Origin: a virus
Taxonomy: Duplodnaviria > Heunggongvirae > Uroviricota > Caudoviricetes
IMG/VR virus record: IMGVR_UViG_3300031992_000010
Strand: one strand, 5' to 3'
DNA length: 64,000 nt
Within the stretch, counting starts at the first letter, position 1; each line of letters starts with the position of its first letter. Positions 5,509 to 59,981 of this stretch are shown here, piece by piece. Position numbers and translations under genes: made by a program. The notes under the pieces are model-generated. The model had not been told where the DNA came from, did not search any database, and saw only the letters and a list, made by a program, of their open reading frames with translations.

Positions 5509-5706
5509 ATGGTAAAGTATGTAATTGAATACGACACGGCAAATTCATTATCGTATACATATACCTGCGATACACATTGTACGGAGAAATTTGATGATTT
5601 GGATAAATTCAGGTGTCGTGCAAAAAGAATCCGGGACGATAAGGGTAAACGTAACATTGAATGTTACAAGATAATTAAGGAGTATATTGATATTAAAGCA
5701 TTTTAG
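5509..5706 (+). CDS. hypothetical protein (65 aa; in-frame internal start of track ORF 5404..5706)
   Basis: TTAAGGATATGG context at 5501..5511. Confidence 0.4.
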   Translation: MVKYVIEYDTANSLSYTYTCDTHCTEKFDDLDKFRCRAKRIRDDKGKRNIECYKIIKEYIDIKAF

Positions 5707-5708
5707 AT

Positions 5709-5906
5709 ATGAATGTATACGAATTGAGATATGCCATTCCGGCCGACCCCGAAATGTGCAGGAAATTGTTTGTGGATGATGGGAGTATCGAATATAAGGA
5801 GTTTATGAAACAAGTCAATTTATATTTGATGAATCCATTAATAGCAACAAACTACCATTCGTATAAGGTAATTAAGGATGGAATAAAAATGTTTTCAAAA
5901 AAATAA
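5709..5906 (+). CDS. hypothetical protein (65 aa)
   Basis: ORF track. Confidence 0.4.
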   Translation: MNVYELRYAIPADPEMCRKLFVDDGSIEYKEFMKQVNLYLMNPLIATNYHSYKVIKDGIKMFSKK

Positions 5907-5910
5907 AAAT

Positions 5911-6309
5911 ATGGAAAAATATAACAGTCACGAGGACTACGTAAGTTACGAAATAGGTGAACTCCTACAAATAAGTGGTTTTGAAGGAGATTGGCATAAA
6001 CATTGGTATGGCTATCAGGGTAAGGAACGTGCATTCCTCACCAGCGGACTATATAATTACGAATATGACGTCCCGGCACCGACATTGCAGGTTGCGGTAA
6101 AATGGGTATATGAAACATATAAGGTCCACATCCAGCCGGAGATATATTATTGTGAGGATGGAATGTCGTGGCTTGTGAAGATTTTCAAGGTGGGACCATA
6201 TAATACCACATTAATAAAAACAATCCTTCCAAATAATACAAAACAGGAGGCGATCGAAAAGGCATTGAATTATGTATTGGTAAAGATTAAAATAGAAGGT
6301 GAATTATGA
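5911..6309 (+). CDS. paralogue family A protein (EDYVSxExxxLL...APTLQVAxKW motif)
   Basis: shares motif with 13357, 13777 and 21216. Confidence 0.45.
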   Translation: MEKYNSHEDYVSYEIGELLQISGFEGDWHKHWYGYQGKERAFLTSGLYNYEYDVPAPTLQVAVKWVYETYKVHIQPEIYYCEDGMSWLVKIFKVGPYNTTLIKTILPNNTKQEAIEKALNYVLVKIKIEGEL

Positions 6310-6776
6310 TGCTATATAGTACGGGCAGCAAATGTGCGAAAATATTTGAGGATTATGCCTCGAAACGGAAGGCCTTCAATAAAAAACTAATGGGGCAAGG
6401 TGTAAAGGCATTCCGGCCTAACGATGGGTGGGTAAAACGTGGAAGGTCGTGTGTAATATTTTTCAATACCCGTATTTATGGAAAGGATCCTCGCAGTACC
6501 TCGTATTACCATCCAAATACACCGTTGCAGGCCGGTGACCTGATATTTATAGGTGATTATTCGTGTGGCGGCCGATATGCAAGGATCGAAAAGGTTTGGA
6601 TGAGGAGTGATTCATTTGCATACGAATATTCACCTCTATACGACTACGTGGATGGCCTCGATTATAAATACATAACGAGGAAAAACTATCCCCGCAAGGA
6701 TACACCTCTGTGGGAACGTATTAAATATCGGTTGGGATTATATGAACCGGAGTTTATGACGGATATTTATGAATAA
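6306..6776 (+). CDS. hypothetical protein (156 aa)
   Basis: ORF track; ATGA overlap with upstream gene. Confidence 0.45.
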   Translation: MMLYSTGSKCAKIFEDYASKRKAFNKKLMGQGVKAFRPNDGWVKRGRSCVIFFNTRIYGKDPRSTSYYHPNTPLQAGDLIFIGDYSCGGRYARIEKVWMRSDSFAYEYSPLYDYVDGLDYKYITRKNYPRKDTPLWERIKYRLGLYEPEFMTDIYE

Positions 6777-6789
6777 ATTTTTATAATAT

Positions 6790-7038
6790 ATGGGAAGGAA
6801 TAAACCGAGAACGGCCGTGGGCAGGGTTGTCAATCAAAAACTTGCCGAAAACGGTACCGAATGTGAATGGTGGGATGGTGGATATCCGGAATGTATGTTG
6901 AATTGGGCACATAAAGGGGACAAAGGTTGTAACGGCAATCCATTTGTATGTAGAAAACTTTATTACCAACATCTTGCATCATTAAGTGACGCGGAAAAGG
7001 CAAAAATAGGAGAATTATTTTTACATAAATTTGATTAA
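6790..7038 (+). CDS. hypothetical Cys-containing protein (82 aa)
   Basis: ORF track. Confidence 0.4.
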   Translation: MGRNKPRTAVGRVVNQKLAENGTECEWWDGGYPECMLNWAHKGDKGCNGNPFVCRKLYYQHLASLSDAEKAKIGELFLHKFD

Positions 7039-7044
7039 ACTATT

Positions 7045-7335
7045 ATGAAAGCATTTGATAAATATTATTTAAAAACCGCATTTCGGGGAAATATTGCATT
7101 TAGTAGTAGGGTACAAAGCATATTACAATGGTTCGGCATTGCCGTGCATAATCCCTGGAGGGACGAGTGTTGTGTGGACTTCGCCTGTTGTTCGCCAACC
7201 GGCAAGGAGCGTTGCTGGCTATCAATTCCGGCAAATAAACTACCATATCGCAGGGTTGTATGGTACGAACCTACGGCACCAATTGGGACACCGGGTAGGA
7301 CATTTAAAAAGTGTACAAAATTAGTAAGACAATAA
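7045..7335 (+). CDS. hypothetical Cys-rich protein (96 aa)
   Basis: ORF track. Confidence 0.4.
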   Translation: MKAFDKYYLKTAFRGNIAFSSRVQSILQWFGIAVHNPWRDECCVDFACCSPTGKERCWLSIPANKLPYRRVVWYEPTAPIGTPGRTFKKCTKLVRQ

Positions 7336-7339
7336 CAAT

Positions 7340-7618
7340 ATGAAACCAACAATTGACGACATCAAACGTGCGGAGGCACAATTAAAACCGTGCCCATTTT
7401 GTGGGGCAAAACCAACAATAGTATTATGTGACGATGAGGGAAACATCCACGGGTTCGAATATCTCGAGGACCCATATTCAGGCATTGGATTTATGATATC
7501 ACATCCTAAAAGTCCGAACAGTGACTGCCCGTTGGCAAGTTATTGGGAGGAGACGTTATTCCCTAACATATATGACGATCCCGAACAATTGGCCCGAATT
7601 TGGAACCGTCGACATTAA
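7340..7618 (+). CDS. putative Lar-family restriction alleviation protein
   Basis: N-terminal LKPCPFCGAKPTIV motif as in Lar-like restriction-alleviation proteins; size of 92 aa fits. Confidence 0.4.
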   Translation: MKPTIDDIKRAEAQLKPCPFCGAKPTIVLCDDEGNIHGFEYLEDPYSGIGFMISHPKSPNSDCPLASYWEETLFPNIYDDPEQLARIWNRRH

Positions 7619-10947: not shown

Positions 10948-11760
10948 ATGGTACAGGATGAACTAAATAAAATTCTTGAAAACCACCTCAAATGGTTAAA
11001 ACATGAGGATGGAGGTGAGTGTGCAGATTTAAGCGATGCCAATTTGTGTGGCGTCAATTTGTGTGGTGCCTGTTTAATCAATGCCAATTTGTGTGGTGCA
11101 TGTTTAAGTGGCGCCGATTTAAGTAAAGCCAATTTAAGGGATGCAAATTTGTATGATGCCGATTTAAGGGATGCAAATTTGTATGGTGCAGATTTAAGTG
11201 GGACCAATTTAAGGCAGGCCAATTTGAAGTTTGCCTACCTGGATGGAGTTAATTTAAAGGATGCAAATTTGTATGGTGCAGATTTGTTTGCCGCCGATTT
11301 AAGTAAGGCGGTTTTGACAGGGGCCAATTTAAAGCAGGCCAATTTATCCGATTCCGTCCTAATTGGAGCAAATTTAACAGGATCCTATATGGATACGGCC
11401 AATTTATCCTGGGCTGTTTTGGATAAAGGTGAGCAGTACCGTTTAGGTATGATTTTAACGGAACCAATAAAGGGTTACAAGAAAACTGCGGAAGGAAATA
11501 TTATAGAGTTGGAAATCCCGGAGGGGGCAATTGTATTCTCCATTAACAACTGCGAATGCCGGGCAAATAAGGCCACCGTAACAAAATGCGAAGGCATCCA
11601 ACATTCGTGGTTTGACCCGGGGTTCGAATACAAGGAGGGGAACACAATTAATATCAAGGAATTTAATTTACAATACAACATGGAATGCGCCGAAGGTATA
11701 CATTTTTTCCGGACAAAGGAGGAGGCGGAAAAATATACAATAGTGGACTTTGGCATATAA
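10948..11760 (+). CDS. pentapeptide-repeat protein (about 30 A(D/N)LxG/C repeats) with a ~100-aa C-terminal globular domain
   Basis: ADLSDANLCGVNLCGACLINANLCGACLSGADLSKANL... quasi-repeats. Confidence 0.7.
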   Translation: MVQDELNKILENHLKWLKHEDGGECADLSDANLCGVNLCGACLINANLCGACLSGADLSKANLRDANLYDADLRDANLYGADLSGTNLRQANLKFAYLDGVNLKDANLYGADLFAADLSKAVLTGANLKQANLSDSVLIGANLTGSYMDTANLSWAVLDKGEQYRLGMILTEPIKGYKKTAEGNIIELEIPEGAIVFSINNCECRANKATVTKCEGIQHSWFDPGFEYKEGNTINIKEFNLQYNMECAEGIHFFRTKEEAEKYTIVDFGI

Positions 11761-12394: not shown

Positions 12395-12631
12395 ATGAGA
12401 ACAATAAGGGAAATAGAGTACAATCCACTCGTTGAAATTGGAAAATATTATGCGTATGAATCGCACGGGAAACTATGTGTCGGACAGGCAATTAAAAATC
12501 CGGATCCCAATGGATATAGTTGGGCAATGAAAAATCTGAATACCGGAAAAATAAACTACCCATATAGTCAGGAAGTTTTCATCACCGAAGAACCTTGTAA
12601 AAAAATAATTCCTACATACGAAACACTATGA
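12395..12631 (+). CDS. hypothetical protein (78 aa)
   Basis: ORF track. Confidence 0.4.
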   Translation: MRTIREIEYNPLVEIGKYYAYESHGKLCVGQAIKNPDPNGYSWAMKNLNTGKINYPYSQEVFITEEPCKKIIPTYETL

Positions 12632-13050
12632 CAAAAGAGGAACAACAACTTTTAAAAACGGAGGATTTATCTGCGAGATTACCGTATGGGGTATGTGTTG
12701 CAAAGGGTAATATAATATATCCTCTAACAGGAATAAATGTCGCATTGGGATACGTGGAATTGGCGGTATCCGAAAGAATTTCAATCGAGGAGGTAAAATA
12801 TTATCTCCGCCCGATGGAGAGTATGACTGATGAGGAGAAGAAGGAATTTATCCACTGTTCCGGATATGAGGTTGAAGAATCGGTAAATGGAAGACATTAT
12901 GAATATCATTTAAAGGATTATGTTGGAACGCCGGAAAAACCAATTTGCAATTACAATGCAATAGTTTGGCTCATCAAACACCACTTCGACTATCTTGGTC
13001 TTATTAAATTGGGCATCGCATTGGAGGCACCAAAGGGGATGTATGTATAA
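12628..13050 (+). CDS. paralogue family C protein (C-terminal HHFDYLGLIKLGIALEAPKGMY)
   Basis: shared with 14452 and 31165. Confidence 0.45.
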   Translation: MTKEEQQLLKTEDLSARLPYGVCVAKGNIIYPLTGINVALGYVELAVSERISIEEVKYYLRPMESMTDEEKKEFIHCSGYEVEESVNGRHYEYHLKDYVGTPEKPICNYNAIVWLIKHHFDYLGLIKLGIALEAPKGMYV

Positions 13051-14245: not shown

Positions 14246-14437
14246 ATGGAAAAGTGCAAAACATGCAGGAATTTCGATTTGATGTTCAGGCCATTTTCGT
14301 GTGATCTATGGATGGAGAGACGATTGAAAGAAATGAAGACGAATGATGTCAATAAGGTGAAGGCGTGCAATCAGTTTTGTCACAAATGGGATATAATCTC
14401 AATCTATGATAGGGATAAATTGTGGAAATGGTGTTAA
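14246..14437 (+). CDS. paralogue family D small Cys protein (CKTCRNFDLMFRPFSCDLW)
   Basis: paralogue at 25599..25775. Confidence 0.4.
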   Translation: MEKCKTCRNFDLMFRPFSCDLWMERRLKEMKTNDVNKVKACNQFCHKWDIISIYDRDKLWKWC

Positions 14438-14451
14438 AACAATATAAGACT

Positions 14452-14892
14452 ATGACAAACGAGGAAAAACAACTTTTGTTTAAAGATTTATCGGCGAGAT
14501 CGCCGTATGGGGTTAAAGCCACAACCACCTCAAATAGGTGGAGTGGTGTTTATACCGTGTCCGGGTGTAAGAACAATAGAGTTTATCTTGATTGCCCGGT
14601 CCTTGACGAAGGTGACGATGAATGGTTAATTGAATCTGTAAAACCTTATCTCCGCAAAATATCAAGTATGACGGAGGAGGAAAAAATTGAATTTTCTAAT
14701 ATCTTTAGTAAGTGGTTTGATGAAGAATTGTTCATCTTATCAGAAGAAACTTTTTTGGAGTATGCTTTATCTCGGATAAACTATTCAATTAGTCATGAAT
14801 TATTTGATTGGCTCAACGCACATCACTTTGACTATCGTGGCTTGATTGAAATGGGTCTTGCATTGGAGGCACCAAAGGGAATGTATAACTAA
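14452..14892 (+). CDS. paralogue family C protein (start at the conserved ATGACAAA junction)
   Basis: C-terminal HHFDYRGLIEMGLALEAPKGMYN; conserved junction DNA. Confidence 0.45.
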   Translation: MTNEEKQLLFKDLSARSPYGVKATTTSNRWSGVYTVSGCKNNRVYLDCPVLDEGDDEWLIESVKPYLRKISSMTEEEKIEFSNIFSKWFDEELFILSEETFLEYALSRINYSISHELFDWLNAHHFDYRGLIEMGLALEAPKGMYN

Positions 14893-15830: not shown

Positions 15831-16967
15831 ATGGATTATAATGAAAAATTAAGATTGGCAAAAGAGGCATTGGAATCAGGCTCCTATGATACGGAGACAA
15901 TAGAATATATTTTCCCTGAACTCAAAGAGAATACGGATGAACGAATTAAACAAGCACTATTAGAATTCTTTTCAGCCGGGGCAAAGAATAATGAAACGAC
16001 TTGCGGTATTCCTGACTCTAAAATCGTTTCTTGGCTTGAAAAACAAGGAGAAAAGCCGGTAAATAAATTGCAGGTAGGTGATGAATTATATGAACATATA
16101 AGAAACACATGTGCCTGTATTGACGACGCCATTAGTAGTAAGACACTTGCCGATATAAATGATTATCTTTCAATGGCGGAACGTAGTGCAAACAGTGCCT
16201 TTGATATGATTGAAAAACAAGGCGAACATAAAGAAACACCTTGTGATAAATGTAAGGGAGAACAACCTTCTCATTCATGTCAGGATATAACGGAATTAGG
16301 GAGATGTTATCTTGAACATGAAAAACAACGTGAACAGAAACCTGTTACTATTAATAACGTACAGTGGGCTGAATTAACGTGGGAGGATATAAACACTCTT
16401 GAACGTATAATCAACAATGTACATTCCGAGTTCAGAAACGGTATTGGGGAAGAGAGTTTCGGTAAAGAAGTGCTTGAAAAATTTAGGGAGACAAAGGGTG
16501 ATGAATACATGGATGCATGTGGGCAGAAGCCTGCGGATAATGTTGGCCCAAAGTTCAAAGCCGGTGATTGGATTGCAGGTGAGGTAGTTCACGCGGCAAA
16601 GATAATAAATATTGACGATGATGAGTATGAGGTAGAATTTATTGATGGAAGCAAGGGGTTTCACTCTATTGATTTTATGGATAAATTTTATCATCTTTGG
16701 ACCATTGATGATGCAAAGGATGGTGATGTACTTGTAAGTGGTGGTGGCTGCCTGTTTATTTATAAAAATATTAATGATAGATTGTCACTATTTTATTGTT
16801 GTGTAAGTACTGATAATGATTTCCTTATCGGTAATGATAGAAGTTATTGTGGTCCTAAAAAAACAGCCAAGCCTGCAACCAAGGAACAACGGGACTACCT
16901 ATTCCAAAGAATGGAGGAGGCAGGTTATAAATGGGACGCGGACAAAAAGGAATTGCATGCAATATAA
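15831..16967 (+). CDS. modular repeat protein, family E (WLEKQG linkers; GDWIAGE...WTIDDAKDGDVL domain; PATKEQRDYLF..GYKWD module)
   Basis: ORF track; promoter motif upstream; shares modules with 17309 and 21798. Confidence 0.5.
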   Translation: MDYNEKLRLAKEALESGSYDTETIEYIFPELKENTDERIKQALLEFFSAGAKNNETTCGIPDSKIVSWLEKQGEKPVNKLQVGDELYEHIRNTCACIDDAISSKTLADINDYLSMAERSANSAFDMIEKQGEHKETPCDKCKGEQPSHSCQDITELGRCYLEHEKQREQKPVTINNVQWAELTWEDINTLERIINNVHSEFRNGIGEESFGKEVLEKFRETKGDEYMDACGQKPADNVGPKFKAGDWIAGEVVHAAKIINIDDDEYEVEFIDGSKGFHSIDFMDKFYHLWTIDDAKDGDVLVSGGGCLFIYKNINDRLSLFYCCVSTDNDFLIGNDRSYCGPKKTAKPATKEQRDYLFQRMEEAGYKWDADKKELHAI

Positions 16968-17023
16968 TACTACATTAAATTTTCAATACATTTTATCTAT
17001 TTTAATACATAAACTTTAAGATT

Positions 17024-17305
17024 ATGGAAAAAAAATTATTAAATTCAGAAGAAGAATATTTTGACTTGTGCAAAGGAGAAAATATTGGTGACGTATCAAG
17101 AAGATATTGTTCTCAATATTGCTCTATTGAAGATGGTATTCCTTGTGATGTTTCACACGTTTGGAATGACGAAACATTACATATAACAACAAAACCAGCA
17201 TCATATCCGTGTGTGTTTGTATGGCATTTGGAAGAAGATTGTAGGGACCACGATTATTTCATCGGTCAATTTATCTATGAAAAAGATTTTAAAGAGGAGG
17301 AATAG
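17024..17305 (+). CDS. hypothetical Cys-rich protein (93 aa)
   Basis: ORF track. Confidence 0.4.
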   Translation: MEKKLLNSEEEYFDLCKGENIGDVSRRYCSQYCSIEDGIPCDVSHVWNDETLHITTKPASYPCVFVWHLEEDCRDHDYFIGQFIYEKDFKEEE

Positions 17306-17308
17306 ATT

Positions 17309-19465
17309 ATGGAAAGAAAAGAAGCAATAGAAATAGTTAAAAAATATCTACCTAATAATGGTTTTACAATATCGCGTGAGGCATTGGAAACATTAATCCC
17401 CGAACTCCAGGAGAGCGAGGATGAGGATGACGATGACGGAATAAGAAAGGACCTTATTGAGTTTGTTCAACAATATGGTGATAACTATTATGGTCAATTT
17501 TCCAAGGCATCCGCAATTTCCTGGCTTGAAAAACAAGGTAAGAAGCAACATACGAATTTAAAAGAAGATAATACTAACGAAGAGACAAACGCTCCAACAG
17601 AATATGGTAAATATGTGGAAGAATGTCTTAATGAAGCGTCTAAACATTTCTTTTCAGAAGGAGAAGATAAATATTCTGTTGCAGATTTGTTTTATGCTGG
17701 CGTAAGATGTGGAAAGTCTTGGCTTGAAAAACAAGGGGGAATAGATTTGGAACACTATGAAGATAGTGAAAATGAAAAACGGAAATTTGTAGGTTACGGA
17801 TTCCTAAAATGTAAGGGTGATTTTCTTTCCTTCAAAGAGGGAAAAACATATTGGCTTGAGTATGTAGGTAAAGATAATTATAATGTGAGAAGTGATAATC
17901 TTCTTGGACAAACTTTCCACATCAAACCTGTTGAATTATATACAGTTTTTCGTCCTACAACTTGGCTTGAAAAGCAAGGAGTGAATAGTTCAATGCCGCC
18001 TAAAGAAATAGCCAAATCAATAAGCAAAAGCATTACACTTTCACTTATCAATTATCTTGATAATAACAGATACGAGGGTTCCATGAACATGTCAAGCATG
18101 GAATGCGAGGATTTAGAGAACGCAATCCTTGATTTGGATTGGGGGAAAGTGTACCGTTATATGCGGAAGAAGCTTGAAAAACAAGGTGAGCAGAATGGAA
18201 TAAATCTTATCGAAACACTAAAGCACTGCCCAAGAGAAACAGAATTATACTCTCCACTATATGGTAAACTTTGGCTTGCCGAAGTAGATGAAGAGAATGA
18301 AATAATTACATGTTATAAGCATTGTTTAGATGAAGGATGTACAAGGGCGATATTAGAACAAGAAGATACTGTTTCTTTTTACTCTGATGGAACTACAGGG
18401 TTGCCTGATTTTAATGTATCTAAAGATTGTATGTTATTCCTTTATGATATTACAAAGCAAGGTGAACAGAAATCCGCTAATACGATTGAATCAAAGTTTA
18501 AGGTTGGGGATTGGATTGCAGGTGAGGGAGTTTACACGGCAAAGATAATAAACATTGACAATGATAAGTATGAAGTCGAATTTATTGATGGAAGCAAAGG
18601 ACTTTACCTTATTGATTTTATATATAAATTTTACCACCCCTGGACCATCAACGATGCGAAGGATGGTGATGTAGTTGTTGATAAATCCGATGGAGCCATT
18701 GGTATATTTCAAAGTATAGGACATCACCCTGATGGCGGTAGTTATAACGACCCTTCTTATTGTTTCCTGCATTGTCGTTATGATGATGGATTCCTTTATG
18801 CGGATTTTGAAAATGGAAATATGATTGATTCGGATGATTTAATCCCGGCCACCAAGGAACAACGTGACCTACTATTTTCAAAAATGGATAAAGCCGGATA
18901 TGAATGGGATGTCGAAAATAAGGTATTAAGAAAACAAGGAAAACAGGAAACCACCAATAAGGTCGAACCAAAGTTTGAACCAAAGTTCAAGGTTGGTGAT
19001 TGGATTGTTGCCAACGATGGAATTAATACCAACAATGGGACAAACACATTTTTAATAACGAATATCAATTGTAACCACTGTTCATCAGGAGACGTTGGAA
19101 TTATTAGTATATACTGTGCATTAGAAGACACTGAAGGTGTTACCCATTATCCTTGCTTACTATCCGAAAACTTCTTCCATCGATGGACCATTGAGGATGT
19201 GAGGGATGGCGATATACTCGTTGATGAAGATAATAATATAGGCATTTATAAGGAAAAGGATGATTTAAATTTAAATTGGGGTTCCCACATTTATCTTGGT
19301 TGTGATAATCGTCTTCGCGGCTTTAGTATAGGTGGTTATCATAAGATTAAAAATACCAAGCCGGCAACAAAGGAACAACGTAAATTGTTATTCCAAAATT
19401 TGGGGCAGGTGGGTTATGAATGGGATTCCGATGAGAAAAGATTGAAAAATATAATGGAATGGTAA
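17309..19465 (+). CDS. modular repeat protein, family E (718 aa; three GDWI...DGD[IV]LV plus PATKEQR modules, at least five xLEKQG linker motifs)
   Basis: ORF track; 190-bp segment about 85% identical to 16552..16742. Confidence 0.55.
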   Translation: MERKEAIEIVKKYLPNNGFTISREALETLIPELQESEDEDDDDGIRKDLIEFVQQYGDNYYGQFSKASAISWLEKQGKKQHTNLKEDNTNEETNAPTEYGKYVEECLNEASKHFFSEGEDKYSVADLFYAGVRCGKSWLEKQGGIDLEHYEDSENEKRKFVGYGFLKCKGDFLSFKEGKTYWLEYVGKDNYNVRSDNLLGQTFHIKPVELYTVFRPTTWLEKQGVNSSMPPKEIAKSISKSITLSLINYLDNNRYEGSMNMSSMECEDLENAILDLDWGKVYRYMRKKLEKQGEQNGINLIETLKHCPRETELYSPLYGKLWLAEVDEENEIITCYKHCLDEGCTRAILEQEDTVSFYSDGTTGLPDFNVSKDCMLFLYDITKQGEQKSANTIESKFKVGDWIAGEGVYTAKIINIDNDKYEVEFIDGSKGLYLIDFIYKFYHPWTINDAKDGDVVVDKSDGAIGIFQSIGHHPDGGSYNDPSYCFLHCRYDDGFLYADFENGNMIDSDDLIPATKEQRDLLFSKMDKAGYEWDVENKVLRKQGKQETTNKVEPKFEPKFKVGDWIVANDGINTNNGTNTFLITNINCNHCSSGDVGIISIYCALEDTEGVTHYPCLLSENFFHRWTIEDVRDGDILVDEDNNIGIYKEKDDLNLNWGSHIYLGCDNRLRGFSIGGYHKIKNTKPATKEQRKLLFQNLGQVGYEWDSDEKRLKNIMEW

Positions 19466-19489
19466 ACTACGTAAAATAATTATTTAATT

Positions 19490-19717
19490 ATGAAAAACAA
19501 ATGTATAACAATAAAAGGCAGAAAATATGAATTGACCTATCATCAGGATAATTCAGCCCCTTGTTCAAAATGTGCATTTTGGGATAGTTGGAATGTTAAA
19601 TGTCGTTTCCCAAAAAATAGAAAAAGGGGATGCAGAATCGACATAGGGACATCCAAAGGATGGAATACATATGAATACCAGGAAATTCCCAATGAACAAA
19701 AAATAAGTATTGAATAA
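19490..19717 (+). CDS. small zinc-ribbon protein
   Basis: CSKCAFW...CRFPKNRKRGC. Confidence 0.4.
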   Translation: MKNKCITIKGRKYELTYHQDNSAPCSKCAFWDSWNVKCRFPKNRKRGCRIDIGTSKGWNTYEYQEIPNEQKISIE

Positions 19718-19719
19718 AA

Positions 19720-20226
19720 ATGAAAACCATGGAACCAACAAAAAAGACAATAAAGGATTACCCGGTCATTTCCGGCCTGGTTGAAAAATACTTCGGGGAC
19801 TCCCGGTCGGAAAGTGAAAAAGCGGAGAATGAACTCATCAATATATGTGAACCCATTATCAACAGGTATTGCAAGGCGATCGAAAAATATATCGAACAAA
19901 TTGGTGGTGATTTTAGATTAAGGGACGTTTATTTCGATTTTGATTACAGTTGTAGTCGTGGCGGTATCGATGATTTTGAAGGATATGATGAGGAGATCGG
20001 GGCATTGGAGTTTTGGTATAGTGATGGATGTAGGGGTGAAATATACGAATGTGGTGTATATATGCCCTTTGAATGGCTCGATGAGGACAAATTTGATGAT
20101 AATATGGCGACAATCAAGGATGAAATAAAATCCCGCCTAATTGAATATATAACAAATAAAATTACCGAACAGGAAAAAACATTAAATTGTTTGAAGGAAC
20201 ATCTTGAAAAATTAAAAAACAACTAA
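19720..20226 (+). CDS. paralogue family F protein
   Basis: similar to 24273..24746 (INICEPIINRYCKAIEKY versus IDFCEPLIQKYYNAIGEF). Confidence 0.45.
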   Translation: MKTMEPTKKTIKDYPVISGLVEKYFGDSRSESEKAENELINICEPIINRYCKAIEKYIEQIGGDFRLRDVYFDFDYSCSRGGIDDFEGYDEEIGALEFWYSDGCRGEIYECGVYMPFEWLDEDKFDDNMATIKDEIKSRLIEYITNKITEQEKTLNCLKEHLEKLKNN

Positions 20227-20228
20227 TT

Positions 20229-20576
20229 ATGGCGGAATTAATTGACAAACTTAATATTATTGGCAACCTAAAAACGTCAATAAAATGTATCGAGGACAAA
20301 ATTACGGATATTGTAAGGCTATATTTTGATATGCGGTTAAAAGGCCTTGTGGTTGATGGAAAGGCGTATTTCGAAACGTGGTGGATTCGACAGCCGGATA
20401 ACCCGATGTTAAAACAAAACCCATACATCACCATCGAATATTCGATTGAAAATTTCAATTGGTTGAAGAATGATTTTGAAAAACGGGTACTGACGATCGA
20501 CATATTAATTGACGACATCGATAAATTTATGGCGCATAGCAATGACAAACACAAATCATATTTAATAAAAATTTAA
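20229..20576 (+). CDS. hypothetical protein (115 aa)
   Basis: ORF track. Confidence 0.45.
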   Translation: MAELIDKLNIIGNLKTSIKCIEDKITDIVRLYFDMRLKGLVVDGKAYFETWWIRQPDNPMLKQNPYITIEYSIENFNWLKNDFEKRVLTIDILIDDIDKFMAHSNDKHKSYLIKI

Positions 20577-20581
20577 TTGAT

Positions 20582-20797
20582 ATGGATACAAATTTGGAGG
20601 CCGAATTACGTTCGACCATATTTCATCAAAACCGGCGGATCCACGAACTGGAGGAAACCATCCACAGGTATGAAACCGGGCTGGAAACCATCAATACCAC
20701 GTGGTATGCCTGGTGGGCCGATTATATGGATGAGGTTTCCCCGTCAAGGATGGAACGGTTCATCGATTATATTAATGAAAATATGACAAAAAAGTAA
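20582..20797 (+). CDS. hypothetical protein (71 aa)
   Basis: ORF track. Confidence 0.4.
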   Translation: MDTNLEAELRSTIFHQNRRIHELEETIHRYETGLETINTTWYAWWADYMDEVSPSRMERFIDYINENMTKK

Positions 20798-20872
20798 CAA
20801 TCGGGATTAAATCCCCTTGGAGTTTTTTATATATTAATATATAATTTAAAGGATTAAGGATAGGAGGTAATT

Positions 20873-21211
20873 ATGGGTATAAAAAATAATACTGATTTTG
20901 ATATTGATTGGCTGCGAAGTAAAGGATTTGTTGGTAATCGGGATACAGGTGATGAGGTGGATCCTGCCTGCCCGGAGAAATCCGAAACATTCCGTTATCG
21001 GGAATTGATGGATTATGAAGGATACAAGGAAATAAAAATCCTTATAGAGATTGATCTTCGTATTCCTGCAGTAAGTAGTATTTTATATCACTATAATCCG
21101 TTTGGTTCGCTAAAAACTCGTGAATATAATGGCGATATAACCTCAAAGGAAATGCTAATCCTGCTTTTGGAGGCAATTTGTCCTGAATATGTGAAAAAAT
21201 TTAATAATTAA
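20873..21211 (+). CDS. hypothetical protein (112 aa)
   Basis: ORF track; AGGAGG RBS; promoter motif. Confidence 0.45.
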   Translation: MGIKNNTDFDIDWLRSKGFVGNRDTGDEVDPACPEKSETFRYRELMDYEGYKEIKILIEIDLRIPAVSSILYHYNPFGSLKTREYNGDITSKEMLILLLEAICPEYVKKFNN

Positions 21212-21215
21212 GGAT

Positions 21216-21617
21216 ATGTTAAAAGAGGATTACGTAAGTTTCGAAACGGCAAAACTCCTGAAAGATAAAGGGTTTGATGGATGTTGTTTTATGGTATACG
21301 ACAAGTATGGCGCCATTGATTATGCTATGGAATCATATGGTGTGGATGAAGTTTGTAATAGTGAATGTAGTGAGGGCGATGTTGCCGCCCCTACAATACA
21401 AACGGCAATGAGATCAATACGTGAGAAAAAAGGCCTTTGTATTGAACCATATAGAACCGCGGCCGGATATCTTTATACCATAAGCCGTATACCAACAGGT
21501 AGTTGTTTGGCGAATCCTTCGGAAGGCGGTGATGATGAGGATAGCGGTCAATGGACGACGTATGAAGGTGCCTGCGAGGCGGCAATAAAATATAGTTTGG
21601 AACATAAGTTTTATTAA
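21216..21617 (+). CDS. paralogue family A protein
   Basis: EDYVSFETAKLLKDKGFD...APTIQTAMRS. Confidence 0.45.
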   Translation: MLKEDYVSFETAKLLKDKGFDGCCFMVYDKYGAIDYAMESYGVDEVCNSECSEGDVAAPTIQTAMRSIREKKGLCIEPYRTAAGYLYTISRIPTGSCLANPSEGGDDEDSGQWTTYEGACEAAIKYSLEHKFY

Positions 21618-21655
21618 TATATGGATAAACGTGAAAAATATATGGTCGATTAAAA

Positions 21656-21769
21656 ATGGTGGGGGAGTTTGTCCATAAAAATATGCACATTCACACTGAT
21701 TGGACCGGGTCGTATGCGGAGTCGATATCCAAATGTGAGGATCTTGACGAATTTGTTGAAAAATTGTGA
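21656..21769 (+). CDS. possible small protein (37 aa), not in ORF track
   Basis: ATG-initiated ORF in a 180-nt gap. Confidence 0.25.
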   Translation: MVGEFVHKNMHIHTDWTGSYAESISKCEDLDEFVEKL

Positions 21770-21797
21770 AACGATATAAAAAATAAGGAGGAATAAA

Positions 21798-22991
21798 ATG
21801 AAAGGTATAAATTTGGCCAATGCATTATTGAATGCACCAAAGGGGCTGGATGATGGATTAAAATTGTATAGTCCGTATTGTGGGGAATGTATCCTGAAAT
21901 GGGTTGATGTGGTAAACTGCAATGAAATGTCGGTTATTACCGAAAATGGTGATGTTATCATAACCGATGGTGATGGCCGCCTTGCCGAAACCGATTGTAT
22001 CATATTTCCTTCGGAGGACCAAAATTGGAACATACTTGCCCCCATATTTTCACAAACGTGTTGTTTGGGAAAGGTGGTTGTAATCGATGGTGAATTTTAT
22101 ATGGTTGATGGAAAGGGGTTGGTTGATATAAGGGGAGTTCATTGGAAATATACCGATGTTATGTTTGATGTGACGTTTAGATTCGCATCCGAAAAGGAAT
22201 CAACCGATTTTGGGTATCAACTCAAACATTATGGATATCAATTCGATCCGCAAAAAATGGAGGTCGGACGGATTTTCAACGAAGGTGATTGGATCGTGAC
22301 CACTGATGGATTATGTGTGGCGGATGGGGTTCCTTCAAAACTTTATATCGATAATATCACGTGGAGCGGCGACCTGAAGTGTAAATATATTGATTGTTTC
22401 GGTGAGGTGCAGTATTGGACGGTATGTTGCCCGTCGGACCTTGATAAATACCGTTTGTGGACCGTTGATGATATAAAAAATGGCGATATATTGGAATATT
22501 CCGGTACCGGCATTACATTCGTGGCCGATAAGGTTTGTAAGGATTTTATAACGGCGTTGGTATATTACAGTAAACATATGACGGAAATTAATGGTTTTCA
22601 GGTATTTGATATACCCGTGTCATTCTCACGGGATAATGTCAAACCGGTTGGTATAAATGATTATCTTGAGTTTTGCAATAACACCTTGAAATCCTATGGT
22701 TATGGCTGGGATTATTCAAAACGTACACTTTTAAAACTTCAGGAGGAAACCAAACAAGAGGAAACCAAACAGGAAACTCCTCAACTACGGCCATACGATA
22801 AAATCATTGTGGGCACCCATGCCGGGTGGGCGGCCACACATTTTTCACATTTCATAAACGGCAATATAATAACAACCGATGGCCGCACCCGTTCGGAATG
22901 TATCATATACAATGATGAGACCAAACACCTACTCGGTAAATATGGTGATTATACCGGCAAATATGTTGTTCGATATAAAATGGATGATTAA
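21798..22991 (+). CDS. family E-related protein (GDWIVTTDG...WTVDDIKNGDILEY domain)
   Basis: ORF track; AGGAGG RBS; ETKQEETKQET micro-repeat. Confidence 0.5.
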   Translation: MKGINLANALLNAPKGLDDGLKLYSPYCGECILKWVDVVNCNEMSVITENGDVIITDGDGRLAETDCIIFPSEDQNWNILAPIFSQTCCLGKVVVIDGEFYMVDGKGLVDIRGVHWKYTDVMFDVTFRFASEKESTDFGYQLKHYGYQFDPQKMEVGRIFNEGDWIVTTDGLCVADGVPSKLYIDNITWSGDLKCKYIDCFGEVQYWTVCCPSDLDKYRLWTVDDIKNGDILEYSGTGITFVADKVCKDFITALVYYSKHMTEINGFQVFDIPVSFSRDNVKPVGINDYLEFCNNTLKSYGYGWDYSKRTLLKLQEETKQEETKQETPQLRPYDKIIVGTHAGWAATHFSHFINGNIITTDGRTRSECIIYNDETKHLLGKYGDYTGKYVVRYKMDD

Positions 22992-23661: not shown

Positions 23662-23997
23662 ATGGATGAGAAACTTTACGATACGCAAACCACAATTCAA
23701 AGGATTCCTGATTCCAAAATATGGGATTTCTGTTCAAGGACATCCCACGAATGGTGGCAAATTGCCATGAATAAATGGAATACCTTATCGGATGAAGAAC
23801 AGAAAAAATATAATCAATTTATAGGGTTTAATGACTTTAGTGATTATTTAATGAATATAATGGCCGGAGCACTTATAAAACTCCGGGACACAGGTAAACT
23901 TGATTACGAAGAAGGTTCATTACTTTTAGAAAAACAAAGGCAAAAACCTTGTGATATTGGAACTTATAATGACGTATCAATGATTTCGCAGGAATAA
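23662..23997 (+). CDS. hypothetical protein (111 aa)
   Basis: ORF track; AGAGGAATAATATG. Confidence 0.45.
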   Translation: MDEKLYDTQTTIQRIPDSKIWDFCSRTSHEWWQIAMNKWNTLSDEEQKKYNQFIGFNDFSDYLMNIMAGALIKLRDTGKLDYEEGSLLLEKQRQKPCDIGTYNDVSMISQE

Positions 23998-27030: not shown

Positions 27031-27825
27031 ATGAAAAATGTATGTATGAAACCACGTAGTAAATCAGGATTAGTTAAAACATTAAAGGTACTCGTTTCAC
27101 AACGTGGATTGTGTGGTGATTTTAATGACATCGATGTTTCAAAGGTTTTCGATATGTCCGGATTGTTTGGTGAGGATGAGGATTTTATCGGTTTTAATGG
27201 TGATATTTCAAAATGGGACGTATCGAATGTTACTGATATGTCGAGAATGTTTTATGGTTGTGTAAAATTCAATCAGGATATTTCAAAATGGGACGTATCA
27301 AATGTTACCAATATGTGGGGAATGTTTTATGCAGCGTATGAGTTTGATCAGGACATTTCAAAATGGAATGTATCGAATGTTACCGATATGTATCGAATGT
27401 TTTGTTCGGCGATAGAATTCAATCAGGATATTTCAAAATGGGACGTATCAAATGTTACCAATATGTGGGAAATGTTTGCACATACGGACAAATTCGATCA
27501 ACCTATCGGTAAATGGGATGTATCGAATGTAAAAAATATGCAGGAAATGTTCTCTTTCTCCCGCAAATTCAATCAGGATATTTCAAAATGGGACGTATCG
27601 AATGTGAATAGTATGTATGCAATGTTTTCAAATTCCATTTTCAACCGGGATATCTCCGGATGGAACGTATCAAACGTGGAATATATGTCGTGGATGTTTG
27701 CGGATTCAAAGTTTAAAGGCGATATTTCAAAATGGGATTTTAATCCGAAGGTGGATAAGGAATCATTATTTTGGGAATCGTCATATTGTCCGGATGAATT
27801 AAGAAAACCCAAAATAATTGGATAA
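27031..27825 (+). CDS. DUF285-type repeat protein (FNQDISKWDVSNVTxMxxMF repeats)
   Basis: at least 8 tandem ~26-aa repeats matching the DUF285 surface-protein repeat signature. Confidence 0.6.
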   Translation: MKNVCMKPRSKSGLVKTLKVLVSQRGLCGDFNDIDVSKVFDMSGLFGEDEDFIGFNGDISKWDVSNVTDMSRMFYGCVKFNQDISKWDVSNVTNMWGMFYAAYEFDQDISKWNVSNVTDMYRMFCSAIEFNQDISKWDVSNVTNMWEMFAHTDKFDQPIGKWDVSNVKNMQEMFSFSRKFNQDISKWDVSNVNSMYAMFSNSIFNRDISGWNVSNVEYMSWMFADSKFKGDISKWDFNPKVDKESLFWESSYCPDELRKPKIIG

Positions 27826-33451: not shown

Positions 33452-33753
33452 TGGCTAAAAAAATTAAACCAATATTACTACCAAATCGATACGGGGATAA
33501 GAATTATCTTGTCCCGTTACAGGAATGGAAAGGTGATGCCATCACCAAAGGCGCATATAAATTCGAAGGTGATAAAAACGCCGGGGATACAATGCGTTTC
33601 ATTTTGGGTGACGATAATAAATCCATCGAGGCATTCGATCCATCCGGCGGTCCTATGTTGGGCATCGGCGATGAGGTAAGACCCGGTGAAAAAATAACCG
33701 GTATTGTATTTAAAAAAGGTGAAGGATTAATAATTTATACAACGATTGATTAA
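33451..33753 (+). CDS. hypothetical protein (100 aa)
   Basis: ORF track. Confidence 0.45.
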   Translation: MAKKIKPILLPNRYGDKNYLVPLQEWKGDAITKGAYKFEGDKNAGDTMRFILGDDNKSIEAFDPSGGPMLGIGDEVRPGEKITGIVFKKGEGLIIYTTID

Positions 33754-34843
33754 AATGTACGGGACTGTGGAAAATATATGGGATGCATTGAATAAACTTC
33801 GTGACGAAGGATTAATAAGTATTCGCCGTCACCCGGTATATCCAATAAGTGTCATCAAATACACCGCGGAGGCAATGTATGATGGATGGCTGAAAGGACC
33901 TGAATCCCATAATTATCCTTATACATTATTGCCATACCTGCGTGGTATTGTAATCGACGACAAAGGTAAAATTGTCAGCGGTTGTTTGAAAAAATTCTTC
34001 AACGTGGAGGAATTACCGGAAAACGAGGCCGATTATATTATGGCACACGCCAACGCCATTACCGAGAAGTTTGATGGTACCTGTATGTTATTGTCGGAAT
34101 ATGACGGTGAAAAATTCTTCCGTACATTGGGATCGTTTGATTCCGGGCAGGCCTTAAATTCAAATAAACTATTTCTCACCACCGTTTCCAACCTGAACAC
34201 CCGGAAATATACATATATGTTTGAATATATATCACCGGAGGACCGTAAGGTGGTAAACTATGGTAACGAAACACAACTTGTATTTATATGTCGAATCGAT
34301 AACGAAACAGGCCGGGATGAATTTTTTGAGGAGATTAATGATGATGATATATTTTCATTAATGGATTTTAAACACGTCATAATTCAACACCTGGATAAAA
34401 ATATATCGGCATTAAAAGGTCTTGATATCGATAATGCGGAGGGATTTGTTATCCGTGCGGAGAATGGGGCACGTATGAAAATCAAATTCGAAAACTACCT
34501 TGAAAAATTCCGTTCAAAGTTCCAATATACCATCAACGATGCACGGATGGATTGGCTTGAAAATGCCGGCGGAGATTATGATAAACTTGCCGCCGAATAT
34601 AAGTGGGACGAGGAAATGGCGACATATGTTAAAGGATTGTTTGCCCGCTGGGATGACCAATATGAGGCAACCCGGAAGGTGATATATGATATTTATGCAC
34701 AATATAAGGATCTTCCAACGATAAAGGATTTCGCCATGGCGGTAAATGAAAATCCATATCGCGCGGCCTTGATAATGTTATATAAAAACAAAAACCGGGA
34801 CTGTATGGGGTGGATAAAAAAATTCGTCATAAAATCAAAATAA
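33746..34843 (+). CDS. rnlA: RNA ligase 1 (T4 RnlA-like)
   Basis: nucleotidyltransferase motif I TEKFDGT; N-terminal stretch YLRGIVIDDKGKIVSGCLKKFFNVEE parallels T4 Rnl1 [30 protein letters not shown]; C-terminal MKIKFENY parallels FKIKSDWY. Confidence 0.6.
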   Translation: MIKMYGTVENIWDALNKLRDEGLISIRRHPVYPISVIKYTAEAMYDGWLKGPESHNYPYTLLPYLRGIVIDDKGKIVSGCLKKFFNVEELPENEADYIMAHANAITEKFDGTCMLLSEYDGEKFFRTLGSFDSGQALNSNKLFLTTVSNLNTRKYTYMFEYISPEDRKVVNYGNETQLVFICRIDNETGRDEFFEEINDDDIFSLMDFKHVIIQHLDKNISALKGLDIDNAEGFVIRAENGARMKIKFENYLEKFRSKFQYTINDARMDWLENAGGDYDKLAAEYKWDEEMATYVKGLFARWDDQYEATRKVIYDIYAQYKDLPTIKDFAMAVNENPYRAALIMLYKNKNRDCMGWIKKFVIKSK

Positions 34844-34894: not shown

Positions 34895-35980
34895 ATGAGA
34901 AAATTGGCAAGTATAAGAACAATTAGTTCAACCTACCCAATTAAAGGTAAGGATCGTGTTGAAATGGCCGTTGTCGACGGTTGGACCTGTATGGTAAGCA
35001 AGGCTGACAATTTTAAGCCGGGTAGTCCATGTGTATTTTGTGAACCCGATTCGGTTTTTCCACAAACGGAAAGATGGGAGTTCCTAAAAAAATACAACTA
35101 CCGCATCAAAACACAAAAATTCAAGGATGAGGATGGCAACGCCATTTATTCACAAGGTTTGGTACTCCCAATGAGTGCGGTAACCGGTGGAAAGGTGGGC
35201 GACGACGTAACGGAACAATTAGGTATCACCCAATACGAGAAAACCATGGATATCGAAAAGGATGAACCGGTTAAATCAAAAAATCCTTTGATGAGATACA
35301 AATGGTTCCGTAACCTTAATGCCAAACTATTCGGCAACGTGGTTACCCGCGAACGATTCCCGGAGGAGGTATCAAAAACCGACGAGGAACGTATCCAAAA
35401 CTGTCCTAACAAACCGGCATTGTCCGCGATTTGGACCATGACCGAGAAGGTTGACGGCCAATCGGGCACATTCCTATTGAGAAAACATAAGGGGTTGTTT
35501 GGTACCAAATATGAGTTTGTTGTTTGTTCGCGTAACTTTAAGACCAATAATAAAAATACCTCATATTGGAAATGTGCGGAAAAATACCACATTGAGGAGG
35601 CATTAAAAAATATTATTGGCGATAACGAATGGATTTGCCTTCAAGGTGAATGTCTTGGTCCTGGCATTCAAGGCAATAAGTATAAGTTTACCGACTATGA
35701 ATTTCGTGGGTTTAATTTGATTACACCAAAGAAACGTTTGGGTAGTGGATATTCGGCGGAATTAATGGCGGAACAAAACATTCCGTGGGTACCAATACTT
35801 GGTGAAATTTCAGGTGATCAATTAATGGAATTGGGTGTTGATGGTATATTAAGGGCGGCAAATGGACCTTCCAAATTAAATCCGAATACCAAACGTGAAG
35901 GTATTGTATTTAGAAGTACCAATGGTACACTATCATTCAAGGCGGTTTCACCGGAATTTTTGATCAAATATAACGAATAA
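34895..35980 (+). CDS. ATP-dependent RNA ligase of the NgrRnl/DraRnl type (Rnl5-like)
   Basis: N-terminal MRKLASIRTISSTYPIKGKDRVEMAVVDGWTCMV...FKPGSPCVFCEPDSVFP signature domain; lysyl-AMP motif TEKVDGQS. Confidence 0.5.
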   Translation: MRKLASIRTISSTYPIKGKDRVEMAVVDGWTCMVSKADNFKPGSPCVFCEPDSVFPQTERWEFLKKYNYRIKTQKFKDEDGNAIYSQGLVLPMSAVTGGKVGDDVTEQLGITQYEKTMDIEKDEPVKSKNPLMRYKWFRNLNAKLFGNVVTRERFPEEVSKTDEERIQNCPNKPALSAIWTMTEKVDGQSGTFLLRKHKGLFGTKYEFVVCSRNFKTNNKNTSYWKCAEKYHIEEALKNIIGDNEWICLQGECLGPGIQGNKYKFTDYEFRGFNLITPKKRLGSGYSAELMAEQNIPWVPILGEISGDQLMELGVDGILRAANGPSKLNPNTKREGIVFRSTNGTLSFKAVSPEFLIKYNE

Positions 35981-51286: not shown

Positions 51287-52021
51287 ATGGAAAAAAAGGT
51301 AGTTTTAAGTTTAAGTGGTGGGTTGGATTCCACGTGTCTTTTGATGACCTATTTGGCGAAAGGTGCGGAGGTCAAGGCCTATTCATTTAAGTATGGACAA
51401 AAACATTCCATCGAATTGGAGAAGGTTGTAAAAAACATCAAATTTCTTCAGGAAAAAGGTTTCAAGGTCGAACATCACATTATTGACCTAACGTCGGTAT
51501 TCAACGAAAGTTCAAGTTCATTATGCGGTGATGGGGGTGATATCCCGGAAGGCCATTATGCGGATGAAAATATGAAGTCCACCGTGGTTGAAAATCGTAA
51601 CGTAATCTTTAGTTCGATTATATTCGGTAAGGCATTAAGTTGGGCAAAACATACTGATTCGAATGTGGTAATTTCACTTGGCATCCACGCAGGCGACCAC
51701 GCCATCTATCCGGATTGTACACCACAATCACAACAGGCGGCCGAACATTTGTTTAAGATTTCAAACTGGGAATCGGAACGTGTATCCTATATGGCGCCGT
51801 TTGTAAATGTGGATAAAGGTGAGGTTCTTGGATTTGGATTGGAGGCAATGAAACAATTGAACTTTACGGAGGATGAAATCAACTTCGTATTGGGTAATAC
51901 CCACACCTGCTATAATCCCAACGAAAAAGGTGAAAGTTGTGGTAAATGTGGATCCTGCACGGAACGTTTGGAGGCATTCGAACATAACCATATCAAGGAT
52001 CCGGTACCTTATCAAAAGTAA
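51287..52021 (+). CDS. queC: 7-cyano-7-deazaguanine synthase QueC
   Basis: SLSGGLDS PP-loop, YGQKH, ENRNVIF (VPGRN), YPDC, C-terminal zinc cluster CGKCGSC; 244 aa. Confidence 0.8.
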   Translation: MEKKVVLSLSGGLDSTCLLMTYLAKGAEVKAYSFKYGQKHSIELEKVVKNIKFLQEKGFKVEHHIIDLTSVFNESSSSLCGDGGDIPEGHYADENMKSTVVENRNVIFSSIIFGKALSWAKHTDSNVVISLGIHAGDHAIYPDCTPQSQQAAEHLFKISNWESERVSYMAPFVNVDKGEVLGFGLEAMKQLNFTEDEINFVLGNTHTCYNPNEKGESCGKCGSCTERLEAFEHNHIKDPVPYQK

Positions 52022-59954: not shown

Positions 59955-59981
59955 AATAACGGGGCTCACGCCCCGTTTTTT
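59955..59981. terminator. bidirectional intrinsic terminator AAAAAATAACGGGGC-TCAC-GCCCCGTTTTTTAT between convergent genes
   Basis: 8-bp GC stem flanked by A-tract and T-tract. Confidence 0.7.

Follow-up and report, generated by a model that had tools for sequence, protein, structure and literature searches.

What kind of proteins are encoded by three plus-strand genes of the virus record IMGVR_UViG_3300031992_000010 (IMG/VR, Caudoviricetes), and why do the same short motifs recur between the units of which they are built? The genes, called A378, B718 and C397 here (products of 378, 718 and 397 amino acids), lie in a stretch of 64,000 nucleotides, referred to as the window, which is part of a ~210-kb metagenomic contig of a large, uncultivated phage of rumen type. 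An initial annotation, made from the letters of the window, had described the three open reading frames (ORFs) with GDWI, WTIxDAKDGD and PATKEQR signatures, all of which are present, and had not recognised the architecture from any described family. The searches agree on the latter point: the three window proteins have no domain match in Pfam, PHROGs, NCBIfam or PADLOC, and the motif strings are absent from the searchable literature. We read the three genes, with a probability of about 0.65, as members of a big unannotated family of phage cassette proteins, in which the conserved motifs would be in-frame recombination joints and the products multivalent binders or adaptors. The evidence is that the proteins are made up of cassettes, one of them a composite module, that cassettes and sub-cassettes assort independently, that blocks of identity between phages end at the motifs, and that nucleotide conservation is confined to the motifs.

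The beta-rich and helical units, previously taken as two separate types, are the two ends of one composite module of ~147 residues, as demonstrated by pairwise comparison (blastp). This module, M, is found once in A378, twice in B718 and once, in a divergent form, in C397. The repeats are significant both between the window proteins (blastp E 6e-40, 8e-18 and 1e-6) and against the M profile, which matches the four window copies with E values of 3e-56, 3e-40, 8e-51 and 5e-21. The order of elements within M is EPKF-KVGDWI, the variable segment M1, HLWTIxDAKDGDVL, the variable segment M2 and PATKEQRDLLFxKMKEAGYEWDxEKKELKKI. GDWI is located at residue 245 of A378, 400 and 563 of B718 and 163 of C397; WT[IV]xDxxxGD at 290 of A378, 445 and 626 of B718 and 221 of C397; and PATKEQR at 348 of A378 and 513 and 685 of B718. 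Repeated units had been assigned to all three proteins; for C397 this holds in so far as one M is present, although it is divergent and PATKEQR is missing from it.

An AlphaFold2 model of M, built from an alignment of 51 diverse copies, has a predicted local distance difference test score (pLDDT) of 92.5 and a predicted template modelling score (pTM) of 0.85. A small barrel (residues 10-52) is linked by a short connector, in which WTIxDAKDGD lies, to a second beta unit (63-121); a helix (124-136) and then a hairpin complete the model. Based on this model, M1 is predicted to be a variable Tudor/SH3-like barrel, M2 a variable second beta unit and the cap a conserved helix plus hairpin; the conserved motifs fall at the boundaries of these sub-domains. 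The modelled barrel has the traits of its fold class (five-stranded, strongly bent, antiparallel, about 50-60 residues), and its top fold matches in PDB are the Tudor/SH3-like barrels 7egs_B, 5dma_A and 4l5g_A, with an identity of just 13-15%. The earlier likening of the unit to SH3/Tudor-like folds thus stands at the level of the fold and does not extend to homology with that family: no Tudor 'royal family' or UvrD-PcrA-CarD homology was detected in M, either as a Pfam match or as a significant match to PDB sequences, where the profile gave one chance match (E 0.1). The M barrel also differs from the C-terminal Tudor domain of UvrD/PcrA and the RNA-polymerase-interacting domain of CarD in being embedded in a larger unit, and its predicted likeness to RNA-polymerase-binding Tudor domains is a lead and not a result. 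In the fold search, the second beta unit and the helix-hairpin cap have no counterpart in PDB or among annotated viral models; the library of viral models returned uncharacterised phage proteins alone, with a template modelling score of at most 0.5.

A second model covers residues 225-544 of B718, which comprise one copy of M and the two preceding cassettes, R and S. M is modelled at a pLDDT above 90, R as three helices at ~60-68 and S as a beta-rich unit at ~80 in its core, while both joints between them are below 50 and the overall pTM is 0.49. This is as expected if the units are independent beads joined by flexible linkers.

Concerning the rest of the proteins, the cassettes were found with seed-based profiles of each segment of B718 and A378; single-linkage clustering merged nearly all segments between joints, and the EKQG motif is so dominant that MAFFT stacked unrelated fragments on it. 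The head cassettes (N) of A378 and B718 are homologous to each other (blastp), contain FPELKESEDERIRK and end in WLEKQG. Besides M, five cassettes recur in other proteins: P in 41 proteins, Q in 54, R in 24, S in 34 and T in 8, and N was found 148 times. The seven cassette types form 48 distinct strings among 123 proteins, and N leads in 121 of them; 121 of the 123 proteins examined also contain M (191 copies, one to four per protein). The window proteins have five to seven cassettes each. The head and tail of C397 are unlike those of A378 and B718, but both are common to other M-containing proteins. A homology of the C397 N-terminus to the S cassette was rejected, as the match is marginal (5 bits, E 3e-4, single-sequence search). 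Module number, which the initial annotation had proposed to compare among homologues, varies between related phages, and so does module order.

Despite their unrelated sequences, all cassette types share the ending [LI]EKQGEQK. The tripeptide EKQ occurs 295 times in the 123 family proteins against 27 expected from composition, an eleven-fold excess. Six linkers of the [W/L]LEKQG type had been counted in B718 and three in A378, and these counts are borne out when degenerate forms are included: WLEKQG at residues 72, 138 and 219, KLEKQG at 288, ITKQG at 383 and LRKQG at 542 of B718, and WLEKQG at 68, MIEKQG at 126 and the degenerate HEKQRE at 162 of A378.

The joints are conserved as DNA and not only as peptide. 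In 65 distinct WLEKQG sites, taken from about a hundred loci, the codons CTT (88% against a background of 29%), GAA (100% against 66%), CAA (95% against 57%), AAG (74% against 42%) and GGT (66% against 36%) predominate, and the EKQG joint is a ~28-nt element, aTTgCTTGGCTTGAAAAGCAAGGTGAgcAnAA. Where the flanks on both sides of a joint are unrelated, the exact shared run has a median of 12 nt (90th percentile 18, maximum 35), compared with 3 nt in controls. Within M, codon choice was analysed in 138 distinct copies with the codon usage of the family genes themselves as background. The per-column divergence is high at four motifs only: EPKFKV (CCA 0.84 vs 0.42, AAG 0.83 vs 0.37), LWTIxDAKDGDVL (ATC 0.57 vs 0.16, GTG 0.62 vs 0.13, CTT 0.87 vs 0.35), PATKEQRD (ACC 0.65 vs 0.16, CGT 0.84 vs 0.18, GAC 0.74 vs 0.26) and KKELKKI (TTG 0.61 vs 0.15). 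Residues of the interior which are equally conserved (Tyr, Gly, Cys and Phe, as well as Gly-Tyr-Glu and Asp of GYEWD) use background codons, with a Kullback-Leibler divergence of about 0. Since several of the codons favoured at the motifs are rare, translational selection is not the cause.

Could the motifs be conserved for reasons of the protein only, as a flexible spacer, a protease site or a peptide recognised by a partner, with the shuffling being ordinary mosaicism that is tolerated at domain boundaries? Such an account would accommodate joints that are predicted to be disordered between folded units, M motifs that lie at modelled sub-domain boundaries and a linker strongly conserved as protein. 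It leaves the synonymous conservation unexplained, above all that of the rare codons GTG, CGT, ACC, TTG and ATC; nor does it account for a codon preference which is seen at the motifs and not at conserved residues of the interior, or for blocks of identity which stop exactly at the motifs (see below). We consider it unlikely. The suggestion that the linker is a processing site or an interaction peptide finds nothing to support it. The linker is predicted to be disordered, and in view of the synonymous-site conservation protein-level roles alone are insufficient.

The conservation could also be that of a functional hairpin in the joint DNA or RNA, such as a target of a nuclease or recombinase or a translational pause site. 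The joint consensus (ATTGCTTGGCTTGAAAAGCAAGGTGAGCAA) is an imperfect inverted repeat which folds at -8.2 kcal/mol (z = -3.5), and the real joints fold more stably than their synonymous recodings (-7.6 vs -4.3 kcal/mol). However, all sites share one consensus, so that the stability test is effectively a single observation, and covariation is flat on 74 sites: paired cells amount to 77.6% against 77.9% in shuffles, and all measures are within the shuffle distribution. A functional joint hairpin is not claimed for these reasons, and we regard it as a very improbable source of the conservation. The reading of the motifs as recombination joints is preferred.

How the segments between the motifs are combined was examined within M itself. 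A total of 173 M copies were cut at the two internal motifs and compared in 14,878 pairs. The identity of M1 does not correlate with that of M2 (r = 0.01). M2 is below 35% in 101 of the 113 pairs in which M1 is at least 70% identical; conversely, M1 is below 35% in 268 of the 329 pairs in which M2 is at least 70% identical. The cap helix is uniformly conserved across copies. The sub-cassettes M1 and M2 therefore combine independently, as do the cassettes.

The breakpoints can be seen in individual genes. The ~190-bp coding repeat reported between A378 and B718 is real; its identity in codon register is 82.5% (156 of 189 positions, 16551-16739 vs 18494-18682) and not the about 85% given previously. 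It corresponds exactly to one M1 allele common to the two genes, and nucleotide identity is 0.8-0.9 from KFK to DGDV, dropping to 0.33-0.6 on both flanks. Of its 63 codons, 48 encode the same residue in both copies, 13 of them with a synonymous difference, and 15 differ non-synonymously. The description of the repeat as very recent was wrong, given the 82.5% identity and the 13 synonymous differences among these 48 codons. It is an older shared cassette allele, the closest copies of which are found in another phage, in the gene of the family protein P0002. A378 is 88% identical to this gene over 167 nt, in a block ending at DAKDGDVL, and B718 shares with it a 501-nt block of S and M1 which is 93.6% identical, has LEKQGEQ and TINDAKDGDV as its exact limits and is flanked by sequence that cannot be aligned. 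As these M1 copies are closer than those of the repeat, the latter is best explained as a cassette allele exchanged among phages and not as a recent duplication in place. Also, the P cassette of B718 is 81% identical over 178 nt to that of a third phage, and this block ends at SWLEKQG. The domain shuffling suspected initially is confirmed by these blocks together with the independence of M1 and M2.

Most of these sequences come from short-read metagenome assemblies, and an assembly jumping between repeats could in principle have produced a mosaic. However, the runs shared at joints are at most 35 nt, whereas the contig name k141 points to a far larger final k-mer, the identical 718-residue protein is found on three contigs from JGI and ENA sources, and a family member is present in the genome of a cultured isolate; assembly artefact is an unlikely source of the mosaic. 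The remaining form of this objection takes the repeat as the template/variable pair of a diversity-generating retroelement. This was rejected: 27 of the 33 mismatches are transitions, they occur in both directions and they are not adenine-specific. Taken together, we give artefact or retroelement next to no probability. Table 1 lists the features of the three genes, which we continue to read as assembled by exchange at joints.

Table 1. Position of the three family genes, their cassettes and related genes in the window
Feature	Position	Strand	Description
Free-standing gene	12628..13050	+	homologue of the ~165-residue C-terminal cassette in family protein P0017, E 4e-14
Free-standing gene	14428..14892	+	paralogue of 12628-13050; homologous to the P0017 C-terminal cassette, E 6e-25
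Gene A378	15831..16967	+	378 aa; N - unique cassette - T (Cys-rich) - unique cassette - M (N-x-T-x-M)
A378 N (head) cassette	15834..16049	+	aa 2-73; final joint WLEKQG 16032-16049; N profile E 3e-21
A378 joint MIEKQG	16206..16223	+	aa 126-131
A378 T cassette	16224..16328	+	aa 132-166; CxxC...C...C; final degenerate joint EHEKQR; profile E 8e-25
A378 module M	16542..16964	+	aa 238-378; profile E 8e-51
A378 M1 sub-cassette	16551..16739	+	one arm of the DNA repeat; flanked by KFK...DGDV
Gene B718	17309..19465	+	718 aa; N-P-Q-R-S-M-M
B718 N cassette	17312..17539	+	aa 2-77; final joint LEKQG 17525-17539; profile match
B718 P cassette	17549..17737	+	aa 81-143; helical, 'NAPTEYGKYV...'; final joint LEKQG 17723-17737; profile match
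B718 Q cassette	17741..17953	+	aa 145-215; beta-rich, 'YWLEYVG...'; then joint LEKQG 17966-17980; profile match
B718 R cassette	18005..18187	+	aa 233-293; three predicted helices; final joint LEKQG 18173-18187, predicted disordered
B718 S cassette	18191..18466	+	aa 295-386; beta-rich; final joint ITKQGE
B718 module M copy 1	18485..18940	+	aa 393-544; unit used for modelling
B718 M1 sub-cassette	18494..18682	+	other arm of the DNA repeat
B718 module M copy 2	18974..19456	+	aa 556-716; M1 and M2 alleles differ from copy 1
Gene C397	21798..22991	+	397 aa; alternative head cassette - divergent M - QEETKQEETKQE linker - small C-terminal cassette
C397 divergent module M	22263..22742	+	aa 156-315; without PATKEQR; profile E 5e-21

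The cassette pool is not limited to the fused proteins. The two free-standing genes of Table 1 are homologous to a cassette which is fused in P0017, and the pool therefore reaches stand-alone genes. Beyond the three family genes, a joint-like peptide ('...LLLEKQRQKPCD...') is also found at the end of the small ORF 23662-23997, which may be a remnant or a lone cassette. Many members from outside the window (P0005, P0030, P0091, P0105 and P0115, as well as the gene at 5638-7377 of locus L084) have C-terminal repeats of the form 'WSEEDE ...(30-40 aa)... WLKSLKDR', the ends of which resemble by eye the half 'ESEDERIRK ... WLEKQG' of the N cassette; this unit is possibly another helical-hairpin cassette which has a joint of its own. 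Insertion of a known domain as a cassette is rare, an example being the Pfam domain WDGH (PF25311, E 1e-38) at residues 139-237 of P0056. Pfam was also run on 73 members with large unassigned regions, and found a GNAT acetyltransferase in two and a weak DUF4250 in three. The window proteins do not belong to DUF4250: residues 508-537 of B718 (the PATKEQR helix) score 15.9 bits, the gathering threshold being 27 bits.

The family is large and nearly unnamed. A search with B718 returned 974 proteins, few of them labelled even as 'hypothetical protein' and nearly all without a name, many on contigs of 200-370 kb. Among 1.84 billion cluster representatives (50% identity clusters), the M profile matches 7,204 at E <=1e-3 and 3,760 at E <=1e-30; at most six stretches of a single protein match M. 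In IMG/VR, the viral contigs with M reach 673 kb and often carry it several times; the carriers are mostly viral contigs of 100-670 kb from ruminant-type samples. In species-representative genomes M is present mostly in ruminant metagenome-assembled genomes (MAGs; RUG, water buffalo rumen and red deer), including Prevotellaceae and Bacteroidales bins. One isolate in culture, Prevotella sp. tc2-28, also has it, on a contig of 82 kb (NZ_FNRE01000014.1) which is viral in IMG/VR as well. The host assignment is based on this one isolate and on MAG labels. No match to M or to the Prevotella member was obtained in 50,697 deposited phage genomes (tblastn), and the region has no near relative among deposited phages (megablast).

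Some further observations concern the carriers. In tc2-28, the family gene adjoins genes for a likely SMC/SbcC-type ATPase, a RecT-type recombinase and a metallo-beta-lactamase-fold protein (translations judged by eye). The family is also carried by single-contig 'genomes' of ~400 kb which are labelled Erysipelotrichaceae or Firmicutes, namely CADBGE010000001.1 (400 kb; L080/L095) and ONIZ01000001.1 (410 kb; L081). One of these ~400-kb 'genomes' is identical in length and coordinates to a viral contig of IMG/VR, and such 'genomes' are probably huge phages binned as bacteria.

The genome context bears on what the proteins may do. The phage has genes for T4-like functions, namely RNA ligases of the Rnl1 and Rnl2 types, a protein similar to SbcC/gp46, a gp32-like single-stranded DNA-binding protein and a sigma factor; nucleotide kinases and a QueC-like enzyme are also encoded in the window. 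The three family genes are surrounded by small plus-strand genes (window ~5900-26300) of at least seven paralogous families, among them those with gene starts at 5911, 13357, 13777 and 21216; 7665, 24761 and 25796; 12628 and 14428; 14246 and 25599; and 19720 and 24273. This paralogy marks the region as a plastic accessory region. In other phages the neighbours are likewise accessory genes (Tad3 family, pentapeptide/DUF5758, TnpB and methyltransferase), and there are several family paralogues per genome. With a pI of 4.8 the window proteins are acidic, and they lack any hydrophobic segment.

Two readings of these proteins as parts of, or passengers in, the virion have to be weighed against this context. 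In the first, they are decoration proteins or adhesins in the manner of T4 Hoc, with N anchored to the capsid or tail and the barrels reaching out to environmental or cell-surface ligands. Hoc-type proteins vary in module number, as does this family between related phages, and a constant head cassette ahead of small, flexibly linked beta domains in varying number would suit such a role, as would acidic and soluble proteins. However, in the window and in three other phages the genes are located amid small accessory, replication, recombination and nucleotide-metabolism genes and not in the structural block, and several paralogues per genome are not what a decoration protein would lead one to expect. 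Also, unlike Hoc, they contain no tandem Ig-like, BACON or other known decoration domain detectable with Pfam and PHROGs in the window proteins or with Pfam in the 73 members. Decoration is in our view unlikely.

The second reading takes them as 'polyvalent proteins', a class from phages and from conjugative elements which combines many domains with enzymatic and anti-restriction effectors and a processing metallopeptidase, is delivered with the DNA and is regarded as serving in host conflict (Iyer et al. 2017, PMC5512222); EKQG would then be the cleavage site of a multi-effector polyprotein. The resemblance lies in the multi-domain build (within the range of two to fifteen domains), the variable architectures, the phage origin and the conflict-type neighbourhood. 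On the other side, Pfam, PHROGs, NCBIfam and PADLOC gave no zincin-like processing peptidase, enzymatic effector or packaging 'header' domain for the window proteins, an enzyme domain (GNAT) is found in just two of the 73 members searched, 378-718 residues are small for the class, and the position among non-structural genes argues against delivery with DNA. This makes membership of the class quite improbable. The products are most likely cytoplasmic, acidic multivalent binders or adaptors, expressed from an accessory ('hyperplastic') region, although this part is less certain than the cassette structure. It is favoured by the lack of a signal or membrane segment, the non-enzymatic composition, the binding-type folds, the several copies per genome and the conflict-type neighbours. 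The initial suggestion that the proteins could be multivalent binders of host factors is still a reasonable one.

Other genes near the family deserve mention in their own right. The gene type of 24761 and 25796 ('...LEQSRKLAEILPIESAD') appears by eye to recur beside the family gene of tc2-28 (L084 5264-5641). A pentapeptide-repeat protein with a DUF5758 C-terminus is encoded a few kilobases from family genes both in the window (10948-11760) and in the related locus L099 (17169-17818), which suggests local synteny of accessory genes between the two. The 264-residue protein of 27031-27825 consists almost wholly of DUF285 repeats (Pfam E 1e-124), a domain first described in Mycoplasma. Two adjacent RNA ligase genes (33746-34843 and 34895-35980) encode one Rnl1/gp63-like and one Rnl2-like enzyme, the latter with a PHA02142 OB domain. 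The QueC-like gene (51287-52021) is located amid genes of nucleotide metabolism (deoxynucleoside monophosphate kinase, thymidylate kinase and dCTP deaminase-like) and hints at 7-deazaguanine modification of the phage DNA. For the two ORFs of ~1,090 residues at 55754-59032 (plus strand) and 59980-63234 (minus strand), neither Pfam nor PHROGs gave a match. At about 60 kb of the window, both gene orientation and GC skew switch.

In our reading, each protein is a string of small, independently folding, non-enzymatic domains, usually in the order of a helical head N, optional cassettes (P, Q, R, S, T and many others) and one to six copies of M, linked by disordered linkers with the core [W/L]LEKQGEQKP. 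The conserved motifs, with 12-35 nt of common sequence, would act as in-frame joints at which short-homology recombination between paralogues and co-infecting phages swaps whole folding units while the frame is kept; that this is carried out by the phage's own machinery is a guess. As all three classes of motif lie at the boundaries of folding units in the models, exchange there would give foldable chimeras. Cassette swapping could in this way create a combinatorial protein repertoire, and the variable barrels would probably engage variable host factors, e.g. in host takeover or counter-defence.

Several points weigh against this. The joint model is drawn from comparative patterns, and no recombination event has been directly observed. 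The common DNA of the joints is short (median 12 nt, core about 28 nt) and below what many homologous-recombination systems need. A function of the joints at the level of nucleic acid could also explain the synonymous conservation, although the consensus hairpin lacks covariation support, and an association of the family proteins with virions is conceivable. The Tudor/SH3-like resemblance of the modelled barrel is generic and a partner is not established; the structure models cover M and R-S-M, with R and S at moderate to low confidence.

Two known systems are close to exchange at joints as proposed here. In T4-type phages, intergenic promoter/terminator stem-loops (PeSLs) move whole genes in plastic regions (Arbiol et al. 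2010, PMC2839356; Comeau et al. 2014, PMC4122927). As in PeSLs, a short conserved DNA motif borders the exchanged units in the accessory part of a large T4-like genome, and it is at this motif that differences between relatives begin or end; unlike PeSLs, the joints of the family are coding, in frame and inside ORFs, they move domains or sub-domains, and covariation does not support their hairpin. The gp38 adhesins of T-even phages have hypervariable segments between conserved glycine-rich motifs, which has been interpreted as easing the swapping of specificity (Trojet et al. 2011, PMC3157838). [quoted passage not shown] A further step would be to take the EKQG joint and the two intra-module motifs as a dedicated in-frame 'domain shuffling code', selected for recombinability and used by the phage recombination machinery to create combinatorial libraries of multivalent binders; we put this forward tentatively, as a possibility which is for now doubtful.

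According to the modular theory of Botstein, phage genomes are said to exchange modules at conserved linker sequences. Clear cases of exchange at conserved linkers are few, and comprise intergenic PeSLs and tail-fibre motifs; the principle itself is known, and what is new is that it appears within genes and concerns protein domains and even sub-domains. The family also provides a quantitative DNA signature of exchange, i.e. synonymous-site conservation limited to the junction motifs. With more than 7,000 clusters at 50% identity and a name in no database, it is a concrete and testable example of phages building combinatorial protein repertoires. Domain boundaries are thereby defined for thousands of 'dark matter' phage proteins of ruminant-type gut samples, and the element in Prevotella sp. 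tc2-28 is a cultivable entry point. If the 'domain shuffling code' is true, it would be a programmed diversification of whole protein domains against variable host defences. Also, should the modules turn out to bind host factors, nature would have provided in this family a library of binding scaffolds that are small and stable.

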